Assembly (NCBI GenBank): GCA_963767735.1
Contig: CAVYES010000004.1
Span: forward strand, 480,001 to 544,000
Direction of reading: 5' to 3'
Source: Candidatus Bathyarchaeota archaeon
GTDB lineage: Archaea; Thermoproteota; Bathyarchaeia; Bathyarchaeales; Bathycorpusculaceae
DNA: 64,000 nt
This document shows, piece after piece, positions 27,419 to 35,313 of this stretch (positions are counted from its first letter, which is position 1; the number at the start of each line of letters is the position of its first letter). The notes below the pieces were generated by a model, which saw nothing but the letters and a program-made list of their open reading frames with translations, was not told the DNA's origin and searched no databases. Both the position numbers and the translations under genes were made by a program.

Positions 27419-28000
27419 TCATTTTTGCTCCATTGGCGGGCAGACTTCTCTGAGCGTTGTGTAAGTTGGACCTTTAGGTGATAATTGGCTTCTTTTCAGC
27501 CTAAGGCAGTCGGCTTTGATTATGCCAAATTCGTAATCAGCTTTCTTCGTTACAAACTCAGCTAGGCGCTCTTTGTCTCTGCCTGATCTTACCCGCGCAA
27601 TGGTCAAGTGCGGGCTAAACCCATAAGCATCCGCCGCAAACCCCAAGGCGCGAATCTGTGGTTCAAGCTGAGTGAAAATGCTTTTGAGTTGCTCGACGCC
27701 ATCAGTCATCCCCGCCCAAACAACTCGGGGATAATTGAGGCTTGGAAAAACGCCTAAACCGCAGAGTTTAATATTGAAAGGGGTAAATTTGACGTTTTTC
27801 ATCGCCTCGTAAACCTTGTCAACCATGCCCGGGTTGATGTCACCCAAAAATCTGGTCGTTATATGGATGTTTTGCGTCGCTACAGGTCTGAGGTCTGCAC
27901 CTGTTTCAACCAGAAGCTTCTGGGCGGCAGCTAGCCGACTGAGAACCTGCTCGTTTTGCATGTCAAATGCAATGAAGCTCCTTATCTGTTCAGACATCAC
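27419..28000 (-). CDS. thpR: RNA 2',3'-cyclic phosphodiesterase (2H family)
   Basis: RSFIA, HITT and HLTI motifs; adjacent to cca. Confidence 0.92.
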   Translation of the reverse strand: MMSEQIRSFIAFDMQNEQVLSRLAAAQKLLVETGADLRPVATQNIHITTRFLGDINPGMVDKVYEAMKNVKFTPFNIKLCGLGVFPSLNYPRVVWAGMTDGVEQLKSIFTQLEPQIRALGFAADAYGFSPHLTIARVRSGRDKERLAEFVTKKADYEFGIIKADCLRLKRSQLSPKGPTYTTLREVCPPMEQK

Positions 28001-28172: not shown

Positions 28173-29096
28173 ATGATTGAGACTGAGAACCTTACAAGGA
28201 AGTTCGGTAACCTGACTGCGGTCGACAACCTAACTCTTCGCGTAGACAAGGGCGAAGTCTTCGGTTTCCTTGGACCAAACGGGGCAGGAAAGACCACCAC
28301 AGTCAGAATGCTCTGTTGCCTGATATCCAAGACAAGCGGCAAAGCCCGAATTGGCGATTACGAGATTGGCAACCAAGAAGCTGCCCTGAAGATCAGGAAG
28401 ATCATCGGGCTTGTCCCTGACAACGTGGGCCTCTACGAGTCGCTGACCGCCTATGAGAACCTGGACTACTACGGAACGCTTTACAGACGCAGTGACTCAG
28501 AGCGAAAGGAGAGCAACGAGTACTTCCTCAAGCTGCTTGGGCTCTGGGAAAAAAGAGATGCTCTTGCGGGGTCGTTCTCGAAAGGGATGAAACAGAAGCT
28601 CGCCATAGCACGCGCGCTTGTCCATGACCCTGAAGTTCTTTTCATGGATGAACCAACCGCAAACCTAGACCCTGAAGCCGCAAAAGCGGTGAGGGAGTTC
28701 ATCCTTGATTTGAAAAAGGAGAAAAAAACCATCTTCATCAATACGCACAACCTTGATGAGGCTCAGAGGATCTGTGACAGGATCGGCATTTTGAATACTC
28801 GGCTGATGGCTGTCGGTACCCCTGAAGAGATCAAGCGGACGATACGAGGAAGAAAGACTGTGATTCAGCTGATACAGGTGAACGAAGCAATTTTGATCGC
28901 GTTGAAGAGACTCCAGGTCAAGAACATGGTCAGGGACGGCAACAAGCTCTATGTCGATGTAGAGAACTCTGAGGAAGAGAATCCTGACATTATAAACGCG
29001 ATTGCCGCAGCAGGCGGACGCATCGAGACAGTTACAGTGATTGGCAGCTCGCTCGAAGACGCTTACCTAAAACTCGTGAGGGAGAACGCACAATGA
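28173..29096 (+). CDS. ABC-2 type ATP-binding protein
   Basis: GPNGAGKT, FSKGMKQK, FMDEPT. Confidence 0.93.
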   Translation: MIETENLTRKFGNLTAVDNLTLRVDKGEVFGFLGPNGAGKTTTVRMLCCLISKTSGKARIGDYEIGNQEAALKIRKIIGLVPDNVGLYESLTAYENLDYYGTLYRRSDSERKESNEYFLKLLGLWEKRDALAGSFSKGMKQKLAIARALVHDPEVLFMDEPTANLDPEAAKAVREFILDLKKEKKTIFINTHNLDEAQRICDRIGILNTRLMAVGTPEEIKRTIRGRKTVIQLIQVNEAILIALKRLQVKNMVRDGNKLYVDVENSEEENPDIINAIAAAGGRIETVTVIGSSLEDAYLKLVRENAQ

Positions 29097-29830
29097 CCGC
29101 TTGGATGCCGTGGAAGATAGCGCGCAAGGAGTTGAAGGTGATCAGCAGAAAAAAGAGCATAATGTTCTATACCATTGCGCTTCCCCTTCTTATGGCCGTT
29201 CTTTTTTCACTCGTCATCAGAAATCAAGTAGCCTCTGGAATTCCCACGGCGCAACAACTACAACTTGGTGCAGAATCAATCATTTACTTGTACGTTGTTT
29301 TAGCCGCTGCTCTGCCTAGTACGATTGCAGCCTACAGTATAGTGGGCGAAAAGATTGAGAAGACGTTGGAACCTTTGCTCGCGACCCCCACGACTGACGG
29401 CGAAATTCTTCTTGGGAAAAGCATCGCAGCGTTCTTGCCGCCTTTGCTCTCGACGTGGGCCGGAGTGTCAATCTTCATGGCGGCATCGGACTACATACTG
29501 CACAACGCGGGGTTAGGCTACTATTATTTTCCCAATTGGAACGCGGGGGTTATGCTGTTAATCCTCGTGCCTCTCGCAGCAGTTTTCAGCGTTGAAGTAG
29601 GCGTGATTGCTTCATCCCGCGTGAGCGATGTACGAGGCGCAAACCAGATCTCGGGCCTGATGTTTATTCCGTTCATGGCTGTCTTTCTTGCGGGAGTAGA
29701 AGGAATCATTACACTAAGCATCAATACCCTACTGGTCTTCGCCGTCGGCGTGCTCATTGTCGATTTAGCTTTATATTTCGTGAGCACAGGCACTTTTAAG
29801 CGAGAAGAAATACTTACAAAGTGGAAATGA
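29093..29830 (+). CDS. ABC-2 type permease
   Basis: IARKE, SIVGEKIEKTLEPLLATP, 6 TM. Confidence 0.9.
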   Translation: MTAWMPWKIARKELKVISRKKSIMFYTIALPLLMAVLFSLVIRNQVASGIPTAQQLQLGAESIIYLYVVLAAALPSTIAAYSIVGEKIEKTLEPLLATPTTDGEILLGKSIAAFLPPLLSTWAGVSIFMAASDYILHNAGLGYYYFPNWNAGVMLLILVPLAAVFSVEVGVIASSRVSDVRGANQISGLMFIPFMAVFLAGVEGIITLSINTLLVFAVGVLIVDLALYFVSTGTFKREEILTKWK

Positions 29831-29930
29831 GGCAAGATCGATTGTGCGAGAAGGCCCACATGAACTCAACCATTGGGCACGTCAATTGTTTCAACAAAGT
29901 TTAAAAATCCCATTAAGAATGATTTGAAAT

Positions 29931-29997
29931 CATGGCGGGTGAGTGGACCTCCATCCGTTCCGCCATAATAAAACCCGGAGTAGGAGGAAAAAATTTG
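29931..29997 (+). ncRNA. Candidate cis-regulatory leader RNA (putative preQ0/7-deazaguanine riboswitch)
   Basis: Follows TATA-like TTTAAAAA at 29900. Stem ATGGCGG/CCGCCAT; loop CCTCC-A-TCCG is complementary to downstream CGGA-GTA-GGAGG (SD); A-rich linker between them. Confidence 0.55.
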
Positions 29998-30114
29998 AAA
30001 ACCATAAAAACAAAAATAGCCATATTGAGTAATTTAGCCATTTTATATGTGGCGTTAACCCAAATTTTAACCATGCAGTCTTTTCATTCTTCCCCTTGTG
30101 AGGTGAAAGTATGA
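29995..30114 (+). pseudogene. 39-aa QueT-like leader ORF, stop overlapping the queC start
   Basis: TTG 7 nt after GGAGG; MKTIKTKIAILSNLAILYVALTQIL resembles QueT TM1; ATGA overlap with queC. Confidence 0.5.
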
Positions 30115-30874
30115 GGAAAGCGGTAGTGATGTGCAGCGGAGGCGTTGATTCCGTAACAGCTCTCTATTACGTTGCTAAAATTATTCGGGCTAACCCAATC
30201 TTGGTCATTAACGCCGATTACGGTCAACGGATGGTTAAGGAAGAGCGTTGGTGCGTCAAGAAAGCCGTTGAAGATTTAGAAAAACAAGGCTTCAAAAGCT
30301 CATACAAAGAAATTGATATTTCATGGATGAAAGAGCTTTCCACAAGCTTACTGGTCCAAGAGAACGTTCCCGTGCCAGAGACGCCTCAAGAAGACATCTG
30401 GGACGCAGGAAAAAGCAAAAAACAGAATCCTCAGATGGTGGGATGTCGTTCGCAACACAATGTTGCTGACTATCGGTTTGGCTCATGCAGAACACTTTGA
30501 CTTAGACAGCTACATCAAAACAAAAGAACGCGACATCTACGACGTTTACATAGGAATCAGAAGAGAAGGACCCGTCGCGATGAAAGACAACACCCCCGAA
30601 TTCGTCGCAGAGATGAATCGTCTTGTTGAGCATGCAACCCACTTTGGCGGATACAAAATCTCAGCGCCCCTGCTTGAACGTCGACAAAGACGGCGTGGTC
30701 GCACTAGGAAAAGCGTTGGGCGTAAACTACCTTTACACTTACAGTTGCTATCAAGGATGGGACTGGACAGACAAAGGCGAACCCGTTCACTGCGGATTCT
30801 GCAGCAACTGCCGACGAAGAAAAGAAGCGTTTGCGCTCGCAGGAATACAGGATCCAAGTAAATACGCTCGGTGA
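30111..30874 (+). CDS. queC: 7-cyano-7-deazaguanine synthase, divergent (2 frameshifts)
   Basis: SGGVDS PP-loop, DYGQR, TYSCY..HCGFCSNCRRRKEAF..DP. Confidence 0.88.
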
Positions 30875-30879
30875 AAAAG

Positions 30880-30941
30880 ATGAAGACAAAAACCATCGCT
30901 TTAGCAGCCGAGTGGCAGTGAGTTCTTTATGGGGAACCTGA
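30880..30941 (+). pseudogene. Internally deleted QueT-like relic
   Basis: MKTKTIALAA start, joined out of frame to VAVSSLWGT* ending 2 nt before queD. Confidence 0.4.
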
Positions 30942-30943
30942 GA

Positions 30944-31303
30944 ATGTATCGTTTAAGAGTTGAATCGACCTTTGACGCAGCCCACAAACTCGTTGGCTTC
31001 GTTGGAAAATGCTCTAACCTTCATGGACACACTTGGAAAGCCGAAATCTTCGTCGTAGGAAATGAACTGGACAAAATTGGAATGCTCGTAGACTTTGGAT
31101 TGCTAAAAGAAAAACTGCGCGAAATAACAGATAAACTTGACCATAGCTTTCTCAACGACTTCGATGAAATAGGCAATCCCACATCCGAAAACATTGCAAA
31201 ATACATCTTCCAAAACCTCAAAGACCTGCCGAAAAACGTAGTCTTGGAAAAAGTCAGGGTCTGGGAGAGCTCCCAAAGCTGGAGCGAATACTTTGAAAAC
31301 TGA
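30944..31303 (+). CDS. queD: 6-carboxytetrahydropterin synthase
   Basis: FDAAH..CSNLHGHTW..DFG..LDHSFLN..NPTSENIA..VWES. Confidence 0.95.
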   Translation: MYRLRVESTFDAAHKLVGFVGKCSNLHGHTWKAEIFVVGNELDKIGMLVDFGLLKEKLREITDKLDHSFLNDFDEIGNPTSENIAKYIFQNLKDLPKNVVLEKVRVWESSQSWSEYFEN

Positions 31304-31313
31304 ACAAGTAAAG

Positions 31314-31421
31314 ATGAGAATAGGTTTGCTTAAAGGTGGCGCAGATTCCACTAAGCGCGTACAAGAATCAAGCATCGAAGAACCGCCTATTTTGAGGTTG
31401 AAAAAAGAGGGTAAAATGTGA
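31314..31421 (+). pseudogene. Internally deleted QueC-like (PP-loop) relic, 35 aa
   Basis: MRIGLLKGGADST resembles SGGxDST; QESSIEEP resembles the QueC C-terminal AGIEDP; its stop overlaps the queE GTG. Confidence 0.45.
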
Positions 31422-32056
31422 GAATCTCAGAGATTTTTTACTCCGTCGAAGGGGAAGGCATTGAGATTGGCAGAGTAGAAGTCTTTGTTAGGCTTTCGAA
31501 TTGCAACCTTAATTGCAAATGGTGCGACACAAAATATGCTGAGCAAGATGGCAGAGAAATGGAAATACAAGAGGTCCTTTCAGAAATTGAGAAGTACCCC
31601 TGCAAAAACATTTCCATAACTGGTGGAGAACCGCTCTGCCAAAGCAGTCAATTGCTTGACCTATTAAGCCAGCTAAAGAGTTTGGGTTATTGGGTGCAGA
31701 TTAATACAAACGGCACATTGTTCGACCGAAGGATTTTTGAATTAGTAGATTTGGTAAGCATGGACTGCAAGTGTCCATCTTCGGGCGAGGAAAGTAACAT
31801 GGCGGTTATAGAAAAAACCAGAGCGTTGTTTGATCATAAGACTCAACTTAAATTTGTGGTTTCAGACAAAACAGACTTAGATTACGCCAAACGCGTAATT
31901 AAAAAATTAAACCCGACCAACTCCATTATCCAACCCGAATGGACACACAGAAAATTTGCGAGTAAAATAGTGGATTCAGTTAAAAAAGACGGGTTGAACT
32001 CAAGAATCATAATTCAACAACACAAGGTAATATGGGGAAACAAAAAAGGAGTCTAG
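31418..32056 (+). CDS. queE: 7-carboxy-7-deazaguanine synthase (radical SAM)
   Basis: EIFYSVEGEG, CNLNCKWCDT, ITGGEP, QQHKVIW. Confidence 0.93.
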   Translation: MRISEIFYSVEGEGIEIGRVEVFVRLSNCNLNCKWCDTKYAEQDGREMEIQEVLSEIEKYPCKNISITGGEPLCQSSQLLDLLSQLKSLGYWVQINTNGTLFDRRIFELVDLVSMDCKCPSSGEESNMAVIEKTRALFDHKTQLKFVVSDKTDLDYAKRVIKKLNPTNSIIQPEWTHRKFASKIVDSVKKDGLNSRIIIQQHKVIWGNKKGV

Positions 32057-32257: not shown

Positions 32258-32716
32258 GTGCTATCTAATGTGTTAATTATTGACGATGATGAAGGAACAA
32301 GAAACTTGTTTTCTACAGTTTTGTCTGATGCTGGATATTTAGTTGAAGCCGTAGGAAAAGGTAAAGATGCCATTAAATTGTGTAAAGAAGGCCCATTTGA
32401 TATTGCCCTCATCGATATTGAGTTGCCTGACATTAAGGGAATTGAGCTCCTCAAAACATTACGAGAGCTTCAGCCCAAAATGGTTAATATAATAGTTACA
32501 GGTCATCCATCAATTGAAAATGCCGTGAAATCAGTGAACGAGAAGGCTGATGGGTACCTGTTGAAGCCTGTTAAAATCCCGGAAATGCTGGAAATGATAA
32601 AAAAAGTCTTGGCGGAGAAGGCAGACGAATATGTTAAGATGATTAAAATTGTGGAACAAGCTAAAGAATCAACTCCGTTCGTCAAGTATCAATACCCCGA
32701 CGGATGGCAAGGATAA
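32258..32716 (+). CDS. Response regulator (REC)
   Basis: LIIDDD, LIDIELPD, VTG, YLLKP. Confidence 0.92.
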   Translation: MLSNVLIIDDDEGTRNLFSTVLSDAGYLVEAVGKGKDAIKLCKEGPFDIALIDIELPDIKGIELLKTLRELQPKMVNIIVTGHPSIENAVKSVNEKADGYLLKPVKIPEMLEMIKKVLAEKADEYVKMIKIVEQAKESTPFVKYQYPDGWQG

Positions 32717-32803: not shown

Positions 32804-33253
32804 TTATTTTTTGAGATTAGCGTTTGCCATCCATTCATGTCTTAACTCAATATACTCAGCTACTTTTTTCTCGTCAAATTGTATTTTCTTTCGCTGTTCT
32901 TTCAATTTACTCTCTATTAGATTTGTTAGTTTTTTAGGGTCAAATGGTTTCACAACATAACCATCTATTCCTTTATTTGCCGCTTCAATAGAATTATTTA
33001 AGGTCGCATTCCCCGTTAGGATTATCTTTATCATGTCAGGCTCTGTTTTTCTAAGTTGACCTAGTAATTCTATTCCTTCCCCATCAGGTAGATGAATATC
33101 TATAAGAGCTAAATTGTAGAGTTGTTTAAAACTTTCATCAACAGCTTTCTTGCCGTTTCCAACGCATGTAACCGAGTATCCTTTATCGGTTAGGATTTCA
33201 GTCAACATTTCCTGCATTTTTTCGTCATCGTCAACCACTAAAATATTTTCCAA
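32804..33253 (-). CDS. Response regulator (REC)
   Basis: LVVDDD, LIDIHLPD, LTG, YVVKP. Confidence 0.92.
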   Translation of the reverse strand: MENILVVDDDEKMQEMLTEILTDKGYSVTCVGNGKKAVDESFKQLYNLALIDIHLPDGEGIELLGQLRKTEPDMIKIILTGNATLNNSIEAANKGIDGYVVKPFDPKKLTNLIESKLKEQRKKIQFDEKKVAEYIELRHEWMANANLKK

Positions 33254-33423: not shown

Positions 33424-35313
33424 ATGTTTGAAACCGCTTCAAGAGAGAGTAATGCTGCAGTAATTTCTAACAATCCTATCAGCATCTTGCATGTTGATGG
33501 CGATGACGCGTTTTTAAGCATGGCAAAACGATGCTTAGAAATGCAGGCAAATTTTGAAGTTGAATCAGCCCTGTCTGTTCAGGAAGCACTTGAAATTCTG
33601 AAAACTAGGAAATTTGATGTTATAGTTTCAGATTACCAGATGAATGGGAAAGATGGTTTAGAATTTTTGGAGGAGATAAAAGCCGCTGGAATTACGACAC
33701 CTTTCATTTTATTCTCAGGTAAAGGACGAGATGAGGTTGCCGTAAAAGCGCTGAATTCTGGCGCGTTCAGGTATATAGATAAACGCGGTGCCTTAGATGC
33801 AACATATGCTGAATTGGCATCCTGTATTCTTCAAGCAACACACTACAGTAGAGCTCAAGCGATGCTTAAGGACAGAGAAAGGCGATTTAGGGCAATTTTT
33901 GATTCTTCCATTGACGCGATCTTAGTTCTCAACGATAATGGGGAAATTGTTTACAATAATAAAGCAGCAAAAAACATGATGGATTACGCTAAGGATCAAA
34001 TTGCCAAGGCATTAAACCAGCATTTTAACAAACAATTCGCATCAACATATGAACAAAACATGAATGATGGCTTTAAGCAATTATCCGATGGCAACTTATT
34101 AATGACTGGAAAGACAGTTGAGCTCACCCTCAAGGACAATTTAGGCAAAACGACCGTAGTTGAACTTTCATTTTCTGCTTTCATTGAGAGTGGTCAATGG
34201 TTTGGGGTAAGCATAGTTCGAGATGTAAGTGAACGTAAAAGGCAAGAAAAACTATTAGAGAAAAGCCAACAGACACTGAAAGCGCTTTTTGCCTATAATC
34301 CAGAAGCGATTGTTTTCACGGATAAGAATTTCCGCGTGACTGATGTCAATCGTAGCTTTATTGATCTTTTTGGTTTTACCATTGAAAGTATCAAAGGCAA
34401 GAAACTTACGGATTTTATTGTTCCTGCTGAATTTAAAAAAGAGTCGAAAACTATCGAGAAGTTAATTGCGAAAGGGCAAGTAACCTTCAGTGCAAAACGG
34501 AAAAGGCGCGATGGCACTATTATCGATGTCAGTTTGTCTGGTGGACCATTAGTAGTGAAAGGCAAAATTGTCGGGTTTTTTATGTCATACTTGGATATTT
34601 CCAACTTAATTATAGTTCAGAACGTGTTAGCCAGTGCTCTTTCAAAAGCAGAACTGCTAAACGAAAAAATTACTGTTTTAGGCGGTTTTACAAGGCATGA
34701 TGTCAGAAACAAACTTGGTTTAATTCAGGGTAACCTGTATTTGGCAAGAAAAAAATGCAAAGCCGACTCTAACTTGGAAAAGTATCTTGGAAACATTGAT
34801 GCTTCCATTAAAAATATTTGTGATATTTTTGATTTTGCAAAAACTTACGAAATGATAGGTGTTGAAGAATTAGTTCCTGTGGATATAGGTCAAATGGTTC
34901 AAAATGCGCTTTATCTCTTCTCAGATCTTAAAGGTGTAAAAGTTCAAAACCACTGCATTGGATTTGAAGTGATTGCGGATTCTTTACTTACACAAGTTTT
35001 CTACAATCTTATTGACAACTCATTGAAATATGGCGAAAAAATAAGCACGATAAGCATATTCGCACAAAAACTAGGTGAAAACTCCGTTAAATTATGTTTT
35101 AGGGATGACGGTGTTGGCATAGATAAGAAATTTAAAGACCGCCTATTTGAGAGGGGCTTTGGAAAAGGCACAGGATTTGGGCTGTATTTGATACACAAGA
35201 TATGCGAGGTTTACAATTGGAAGGTAAAAGAGACTGGTCAGCTAGGTCAAGGCGCTCAATTTGAATTTATTATCCCCGTTGAAAAAGTTAAGAGGTTTGT
35301 GGAATCCAGATAA
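33424..35313 (+). CDS. Hybrid REC-PAS-PAS histidine kinase
   Basis: VSDYQM, two PAS domains, RHDVRNKL, NSLKYG, DDGVG, GTGFGL. Confidence 0.92.
   Translation: MFETASRESNAAVISNNPISILHVDGDDAFLSMAKRCLEMQANFEVESALSVQEALEILKTRKFDVIVSDYQMNGKDGLEFLEEIKAAGITTPFILFSGKGRDEVAVKALNSGAFRYIDKRGALDATYAELASCILQATHYSRAQAMLKDRERRFRAIFDSSIDAILVLNDNGEIVYNNKAAKNMMDYAKDQIAKALNQHFNKQFASTYEQNMNDGFKQLSDGNLLMTGKTVELTLKDNLGKTTVVELSFSAFIESGQWFGVSIVRDVSERKRQEKLLEKSQQTLKALFAYNPEAIVFTDKNFRVTDVNRSFIDLFGFTIESIKGKKLTDFIVPAEFKKESKTIEKLIAKGQVTFSAKRKRRDGTIIDVSLSGGPLVVKGKIVGFFMSYLDISNLIIVQNVLASALSKAELLNEKITVLGGFTRHDVRNKLGLIQGNLYLARKKCKADSNLEKYLGNIDASIKNICDIFDFAKTYEMIGVEELVPVDIGQMVQNALYLFSDLKGVKVQNHCIGFEVIADSLLTQVFYNLIDNSLKYGEKISTISIFAQKLGENSVKLCFRDDGVGIDKKFKDRLFERGFGKGTGFGLYLIHKICEVYNWKVKETGQLGQGAQFEFIIPVEKVKRFVESR

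Follow-up and report, generated by a model that had tools for sequence, protein, structure and literature searches.

Three classes of riboswitch for prequeuosine 1 (preQ1) are named in a 2024 review, which makes no mention of archaea (PMC11625349), and a 2017 survey lists for archaea only the thiamine pyrophosphate (TPP) and fluoride classes and, occasionally, the flavin mononucleotide (FMN), Mg2+-I and guanidine-II classes (PMC5473149). As described in the review, class I (preQ1-I, RF00522) is an H-type pseudoknot found with que biosynthesis genes, in which the P1 loop pairs with a 3′ tail bearing the Shine-Dalgarno (SD) sequence and an A-rich stretch follows P1; it is defined by a specificity C, preceded by A or U, just 5′ of the P1 3′ strand. 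Class II (preQ1-II, RF01054) is limited to Bacillota, lies before queT, acts on translation only and adopts an HLout fold of four paired regions (P1-P4, P4 being a hairpin), the whole SD lying in a pseudoknot with a hairpin loop. Class III (preQ1-III, RF02680), from Ruminococcaceae and metagenomes, also lies before queT and is about 100 nucleotides (nt) long, with five helices and two pseudoknots; its hairpin-loop anti-SD pairs with the SD in the 3′ tail, the platform being far from the binding pocket (PMC11625349). The DNA studied here, referred to as the window, is a stretch of 64,000 nt from Candidatus Bathyarchaeota archaeon, and it carries at 29932-29987 one copy of a leader RNA whose aligned homologous copies are 56-70 nt long. 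This segment is probably a translational OFF riboswitch, aptamer and expression platform included, from an archaeal family that as a rule precedes queT. Its parts are as follows.

29900-29907, + strand: TATA-like box TTTAAAAA, 34 nt 5′ of the first core P1 base (letter check)
29932-29938, + strand: P1 5′ strand, AUGGCGG, pairing with 29960-29966
29939-29942, + strand: J1/2, GUGA, of which the first G and U are invariant
29943-29954, + strand: P2, inner hairpin, GUGG (29943-29946), loop ACCU and CCAU (29951-29954), from the minimum free energy (MFE) fold and pairing in homologues
29948-29952, + strand: anti-SD CCUCC, the pseudoknot 5′ strand, pairing with GGAGG at 29983-29987; 29951-29952 are common to P2
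29954-29959, + strand: J2/1, with CCGUU at 29955-29959; UCCG at 29954-29957 could pair with CGGA at 29976-29979, lengthening the pseudoknot
29960-29966, + strand: P1 3′ strand, CCGCCAU, pairing with 29932-29938
29967-29978, + strand: A-rich linker AAUAAAA and conserved CCCGG, with AAA and CC-CGG near-invariant in 137 aligned sequences
29983-29987, + strand: SD sequence GGAGG, the pseudoknot 3′ strand, 7 nt before the TTG at 29995

A preliminary description, made from the letters of the stretch, had taken this region for a candidate archaeal preQ0 riboswitch. A letter check placed all of the motifs it had named where it had put them: TTTAAAAA, the two P1 strands, CCTCC-A-TCCG (29948-29957), CGGA-GTA-GGAGG (29976-29987), GGGT (29937-29940) and ACCC (29973-29976), together with the 7-nt spacing from GGAGG to the TTG at 29995. 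The structure it had drawn, P1 plus an SD-sequestering pseudoknot, was borne out in that both helices covary, but it had missed the second hairpin, P2, which overlaps the anti-SD.

Comparison with the known preQ1 riboswitch classes

Like preQ1-II, the element lies before queT (in 121 of 128 cases, see below) with the whole SD paired to a hairpin loop, over 5-9 bp across homologues; it would likewise act on translation only and bind a ligand of the same family. It differs from preQ1-II in that its hosts are archaeal, its consensus sequence is another, its P1 encloses the hairpin that donates the loop, and its likely ligand is preQ0 and not preQ1. Only P1, P2 and one pseudoknot helix were supported, and the linker, 9-15 nt in homologues, leaves no room for a P4-like hairpin.

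With preQ1-I the element shares the H-type arrangement, P1 and the pseudoknot both covarying and the AAA of the A-rich linker being invariant, but it is about twice the size and has a hairpin inside the first loop. In place of the specificity C, a U precedes the P1 3′ strand in 142 of 142 sequences (last two bases UU in 140, CU in 2). The position before queT and the pairing of a hairpin-loop anti-SD with an SD in the 3′ tail are also found in preQ1-III, whereas the element, at 56-70 nt, is shorter than that class, and its platform overlaps the conserved core. In size and consensus the element departs from all three classes.

The Rfam models of the three classes did not match, as the preliminary description had expected. 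Searching the whole window with Rfam 15 at gathering scores gave no hits, and at E ≤ 10 neither 29700-30300, nor the 91-nt element, nor 19 homologous loci matched preQ1-I, preQ1-II or preQ1-III. Matches to small nucleolar RNA (snoRNA) and long non-coding RNA (lncRNA) models at E 1.5-7 were set aside as chance. A literature search, which had most subscription journals and supplements outside its reach, found no description of an archaeal preQ0 or preQ1 riboswitch or of a queT leader RNA. SD sequestration by a ligand-stabilised pseudoknot would be a mechanism of known kind, with the architecture and the host domain as the candidate novelties. On balance, we lean slightly towards the view that the element adds a fourth structural class to the 7-deazaguanine riboswitches, the first to be confined, as far as seen, to Archaea; it would be tuned to the archaeosine precursor preQ0 and not to preQ1, and would work by competition between an inner hairpin and an SD-sequestering pseudoknot.

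Distribution of the element

BLASTN of 29831-30200 against 40 relatives revealed matches only from 29933 to about 30000; they occurred in 26 of the 40 genomes (E ≤ 1e-4), at 73-89% identity, and were spread over 12 families of the order. In an alignment of 20 copies, the invariant blocks GGCGGGUGAGU, CCGUUCCGCC and AAA.CCCGG were accompanied by a hairpin of varying length and, on the 5′ side, by a TATA-like box. A covariance model, R1, was built in this analysis and used for genome searches. It matched 1) 113 of 151 genomes and 52 of 63 genera in the order of the window, 2) 90 of 151 genomes and 52 of 79 genera in its class, 3) 27 of 151 genomes in its phylum, other classes included (9/15, 3/3 and 2/2 in families f44, f56 and f60, respectively), and 4) 21 of 121 genomes in the Asgard phylum, where the search was reached via a named Asgard locus. 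Most of the positive genomes had a single copy.

When prokaryotic genomes, one for each species, were scanned with an exact pattern, at least 120 stretches matched and at least 80 loci were returned; among the matches listed, 75 of 80 passed R1. Those that passed, again among the matches listed, were mostly titled Bathyarchaeia or Bathyarchaeota, in agreement with the taxon assumed in the preliminary description, the remainder being Methanomethylicota, Nitrososphaerota, Nitrosopumilales, Nitrososphaerales, Promethearchaeota and Hodarchaeota; the five that failed were the only bacterial records among the matches listed, and their number fits the chance expectation estimated beforehand. Viral contigs scanned with the same DNA pattern gave no match. 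The element has so far been seen only in archaea; it is widespread in Bathyarchaeia, Methanomethylicia and some Nitrososphaeria, and occurs in Asgard archaea. Conservation of the homologous leaders, on which the preliminary proposal had been made to depend, was thus found by BLASTN and R1 and, as described below, in the pairing counts. It was also noticed that a group of Asgard copies (L222-L229), each before a QueT-like open reading frame (ORF), scored only 25-30 bits with R1; in these, CCGUGCU replaces CCGUU in J2/1, the anti-SD CUCGCA faces UGCGAG, and P2 is not clear.

Covariation of the helices

The 151 model hits comprised 148 unique sequences and, after parsing, 143 distinct ones, 142 of which had a full P1; formal pairing counts were made on an alignment of 74 distinct rows (A4). 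In P1, the three inner pairs were invariant in the 142 sequences and the fourth was G-C in 141 and A-U in one. The third pair was formed in 139 (G-C 103, A-U 23, G-U 6, U-A 4, C-G 3), and one more pair was formed in 96. The four pairs of P2 were formed in 121, 129, 125 and 117 of 134 sequences, the second being U-A in 109, G-C in 16, C-G in 2 and U-G in 2; on A4, 97.2% of the P2 cells were paired, with both-side changes at two of the four pairs. Mutual information ranked the outer P1 pair and the second P2 pair among the top true pairs.

Taken together, P1 and P2 were paired in 89.6% of the A4 cells versus 84.9% after shuffling (0 of 500 shuffles reached the value) and in at most 59% when the partners were slid, while for P1 plus the pseudoknot the values were 86.0% versus 79.6% (again 0 of 500) and no more than 66% with slid partners. 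Of the five pseudoknot pairs, four had both-side changes on A4. Across homologues the anti-SD and SD changed together, as in CCUCC:GGAGG, UCUCC:GGAGA, CCACC:GGUGG, UUCCGA:UCGGAA and CAUCUC:GAGAUG, and in the CUCGCA:UGCGAG of the Asgard variants. Duplexes of each loop with its own tail averaged -12.40 kcal/mol versus -10.75 kcal/mol with swapped partners, and the observed mean was reached in 0 of 5000 permutations. Kinship among the sequences inflates the shuffle statistics, whereas the many independent anti-SD:SD letter combinations do not rest on such tests. Three helices covary, namely P1, P2 and the anti-SD:SD pseudoknot, and compensatory changes in P1 and the pseudoknot, which the preliminary description had proposed to look for, are present in the A4 counts, the per-pair counts and the loop-tail duplex energies.

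These substitutions bear on whether the conserved block might instead code for a small protein, since a 60-amino-acid (aa) ORF at 29932-30114 and a 53-aa ORF at 29913-30074 on the minus strand both exist. The ATG at 29932 is missing in most homologues, which start with UUAGG, AUUGG, GUUGG and the like, indels of 1-8 nt occur inside the block, and the substitutions are compensatory for base pairs, so that we give a coding origin next to no credence.

In the 142 sequences, the first four letters of J1/2 were GUGA in 107, GUGG in 19, GUAG in 9, GUAA in 4 and GUUG in 3, and J2/1 was CCGUU in 137; the AAA of the linker and CC-CGG showed next to no variation in 137 aligned sequences. Across the TACK (Thaumarchaeota, Aigarchaeota, Crenarchaeota and Korarchaeota) and Asgard lineages, some 20 unpaired positions are invariant. 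The P2 3′ strand lies within the anti-SD, and, because two or three bases are common to both, P2 and the full pseudoknot are mutually exclusive or compete. The CCG of J2/1 would probably pair with the CGG of the tail, extending the pseudoknot; both are invariant in most sequences. The alternative pairing of GGGU with ACCC that had been suggested earlier likewise uses invariant bases.

RNAalifold proposed another, SD-freeing fold (CGGGUG with CACCCG, and UCCG with CGGR). It was compatible in 94.4% of the cells, but no both-side change was seen and it equalled the shuffles; it is a possible ligand-free conformer and is not counted here as a finding.

Genes downstream of the element

For 128 of the 143 distinct elements, an ORF of 100 aa or more lay downstream, the remainder being cut by contig ends, frameshifts or the choice of start codon. 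Among these 128 ORFs, 121 matched Pfam QueT, three (L103, L109 and L158) were radical SAM proteins whose best NCBIfam matches were QueE models, below cut-offs, and one (L144) was QueC; those of L006 and L057 were QueT in a wrong or broken frame. The distance from the last paired base of the pseudoknot to the start codon was mostly 3-10 nt, most commonly 6 nt (31/128). A queC match lay 3′ of the element at a minimum of 45 loci, mostly directly after queT, and no other conserved protein gene was found to travel with the motif among the loci. Trained on all of the downstream ORFs together, a hidden Markov model (HMM) gave no discrimination and was set aside.

The family would thus normally head queT, often followed by queC, and sometimes directly head queE or queC. 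The gene context given in the preliminary description, 7-deazaguanine transport and synthesis, holds for 125 of the 128 downstream ORFs, but queC, which it took to be the target, is not the usual one; that is queT, often with queC after it.

In the order of the window, QueT was found in 132 of 151 genomes, and the motif was present in 110 of the 132 QueT-positive and 3 of the 19 QueT-negative genomes; the motif and QueT counts come from two draws of genomes, with the same handles as far as listed. Three genomes (G124, G085 and G158) had two motif copies and two QueT genes, with one motif directly before each. In one Bathyarchaeia record, the gene that comes after the motif (L126:5727-6557, minus strand) encodes a multi-pass membrane protein of 277 aa that belongs to no Pfam or NCBIfam family, and queC comes next; this protein is possibly a new 7-deazaguanine transporter.

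Proposed mechanism and ligand

As far as sequence analysis reaches, the conservation, covariation, promoter spacing and gene association support the riboswitch interpretation, and the generic hallmarks of riboswitches were found: a conserved structured 5′ leader, covarying helices, invariant unpaired bases and the genes of one metabolite. We infer the following switch, including its ligand, its direction and its binding pocket. Transcription would begin a few bases before P1, which would enclose the small hairpin P2; near-invariant junctions (GU.. and CCGUU) would join the two helices, followed by the A-rich linker and CCCGG. The anti-SD, in the P2 loop and 3′ strand, would pair with the downstream SD in an H-type pseudoknot, probably lengthened by CCG:CGG, and P2 would compete with it for the two or three common bases. 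A free 7-deazaguanine base, most likely preQ0, would bind conserved nucleotides of the junctions and tail and lock the pseudoknot, whereupon the ribosome could not load on the SD.

QueF reduces preQ0 to preQ1. It was found in none of 41 genomes (the source genome and 40 relatives), while seven control bacteria scored, and for this reason preQ0 is the likeliest ligand. The genome has a TGT-family (tRNA-guanine transglycosylase) gene whose open frame is 551 aa long. According to a published account, QueC, QueE and QueD make preQ0, and QueT is a predicted precursor transporter (PMC5372724). Thus preQ0 appears to be the most economical candidate.

A riboswitch for another ligand, such as preQ1, 7-carboxy-7-deazaguanine (CDG), guanine, another purine or a nucleoside form, would fit the gene context, which cannot tell preQ0 from its close relatives, and crystal structures of the Tte preQ1-I riboswitch with both preQ0 and preQ1 are recorded in the review (PMC11625349). 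Set against this, the 41 genomes in which QueF was not found should not make preQ1, and preQ0 is the common product or cargo of queC, queE and queT, so that a different ligand seems very unlikely.

Several observations weigh against the riboswitch reading. The single-sequence fold of the window copy is unremarkable (MFE -18.4 kcal/mol, z = -0.88, 34 of 200 shuffles being as stable), so it is by conservation in relatives that the element stands above chance. The pair flanking CCG:CGG is weakly supported, and CGG is replaced by AAA in three sequences (L079, L080 and L086); these are weak copies of 25-28 bits that have CCCCAAAAGG where others have CCCCGG.., so that the CCG:CGG extension cannot form there, while the anti-SD:SD helix is retained. 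In the order, 22 of the 132 QueT-positive genomes (including G132, G140, G093, G125, G044, G064, G075 and G086) had no R1 match, for which strict filters or variant leaders may account in part, or no leader may be present. In the window, the regulated ORF is only a remnant of queT, and no notable structure surrounds the queC start (z 0.27); both are taken up below. Finally, the pseudoknot duplex averages -12.3 kcal/mol and the P2 hairpin -3.7 kcal/mol, so that the pseudoknot, being far the stronger, could mask the SD without any ligand.

This predicted stability, together with the small number of riboswitch classes that archaea use according to the 2017 survey (PMC5473149), would fit an SD mask operated by a protein of the pathway or an RNA-binding protein on the junction, or one that damps translation constitutively. 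The approximately 20 invariant unpaired positions are, however, typical of a small-molecule pocket, the motif is tied to genes for the transport and synthesis of a single metabolite, and only queT and queC travel with it. A mask of either kind therefore seems quite unlikely, and we keep to a riboswitch for preQ0.

Should this reading be true, an abundant archaea-only class would indicate that archaea evolved metabolite-sensing RNAs of their own; it would also add a further fold to those by which RNA holds guanine-like ligands, support preQ0 salvage through archaeal QueT and offer a natural SD-masking switch for archaeal engineering. The presence of the element in both TACK and Asgard archaea raises the question of its age.

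Promoter and transcript

TATA-like 7-mers peaked 32-36 nt 5′ of the first core P1 base among the 141 leaders for which the preceding 60 nt were available, while 32 of the 141 had no TATA-like 7-mer by the pattern used. From this position of the box, the element is taken to open the transcript, and the usual archaeal spacing between TATA box and start would place the transcription start of the window at about 29929-29932, a few bases before P1 and in agreement with the preliminary estimate. RNA-library contigs matched 29944-30099, 30096-30179, 30365-30722 and 31070-31216; they place these segments in RNA libraries from a single study, which falls short of proving transcription, and, being assembled contigs like the other matching records, cannot show the transcription start or strand. 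No conserved oligo-U terminator was seen by eye 3′ of the element in the aligned homologues.

The queT remnant and the queC-queD-queE genes of the window

The genes that follow the element, and the pair that precedes its intergenic stretch, are listed below.

28173-29096 and 29093-29830: ABC-2 transporter pair (Pfam), 5′ of the intergenic stretch of the leader
29995-30114, + strand: queT remnant of 39 codons with a TTG start, the stop overlapping the queC ATG (ATGA)
30111-30874, + strand: queC, matched by Pfam QueC as three pieces in three frames
30929-31303, + strand: queD, Pfam PTPS (4.5e-38) and NCBIfam TIGR03367 (102.6 bits versus a cut-off of 89.25)
31418-32056, + strand: queE, radical SAM protein, Pfam Radical_SAM and Fer4_12

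For queE, the three best NCBIfam matches were QueE models covering nearly the whole protein, all of them below the equivalog cut-offs. The 39-aa ORF, which had been described as a QueT-like leader, proved to be a true remnant of the QueT N-terminus: its Smith-Waterman score with the N-terminus of a QueT of the same genus was 58 versus 19.8 +/- 3.9 for shuffled sequences (0 of 1000 reached it). The BLASTN matches of the leader extended about 33 nt into this ORF. It had no Pfam family, QueT (PF06177) included, and BLASTP against one QueT gave no alignment; since its alignment with QueT proteins is confined to roughly their first 39 residues, it is a remnant and not a transporter. No match to QueT was found elsewhere in the source genome (94.9% complete), whereas QueT was present in 12 of 12 others from its genus.

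The QueC of the window was 43-55% identical to that of L109, a Nitrososphaerota record, versus 35-40% to the same-genus QueC proteins encoded after queT. That queT is cut short and that QueC is nearer to L109 suggests that a foreign queC-queD-queE block may have replaced most of queT plus the original queC. Other samples yielded short-read contigs, 93-98% identical, with the same remnant junction: X2 record 13 spans 30051-30199, X2 record 12 the whole element, and an RNA-library contig 29944-30099. Five differences are listed for the records spanning 29914-30099; all of them lie in the remnant ORF, and 29932-29987 has none of those listed. The two places where the window queC changes frame, 30408 and 30677/30679, are each one nucleotide shorter in contigs of close relatives, both from short-read DNA and from RNA libraries, and by frame arithmetic these two differences join the three frames into one ORF. 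Because those bases are absent from the contigs of relatives, the queC frameshifts are most likely indel errors of the assembly, or changes private to the strain.

The loss of most of queT raises the possibility that the element in this genome is a relic, left by the deletion without a useful target. With queT down to 39 codons and no other QueT in the genome, and with queC having an SD-like GAGGUGA of its own, six bases 5′ of its ATG and free of notable masking structure, little may be left for the element to regulate. On the other hand, the copy scores 72.5 bits with R1, comparable to intact loci, and retains every invariant position; the remnant arrangement recurs in the other samples mentioned above, where the listed differences spare the element; and the remnant stop overlaps the queC start. 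We thus consider a relic unlikely and retain a working riboswitch as the preferred reading. Since the controlled ORF is a remnant that overlaps the queC start, the element could act on queC-queD-queE only by translational coupling or by affecting the transcript as a whole.

Farther downstream, judged by eye from the translations, two small ORFs at 32258-32716 (+ strand) and 32804-33253 (- strand) look like receiver domains of response regulators, and an ORF of 629 aa at 33424-35313 seems to begin as a receiver and to end as a histidine kinase. Upstream of the ABC-2 pair, a 193-aa ORF at 27419-28000 (- strand) carries two H-x-T/S motifs (HITTRF and HLTIAR), which we take to be reminiscent of the 2H phosphoesterase/2′-5′ RNA ligase proteins.
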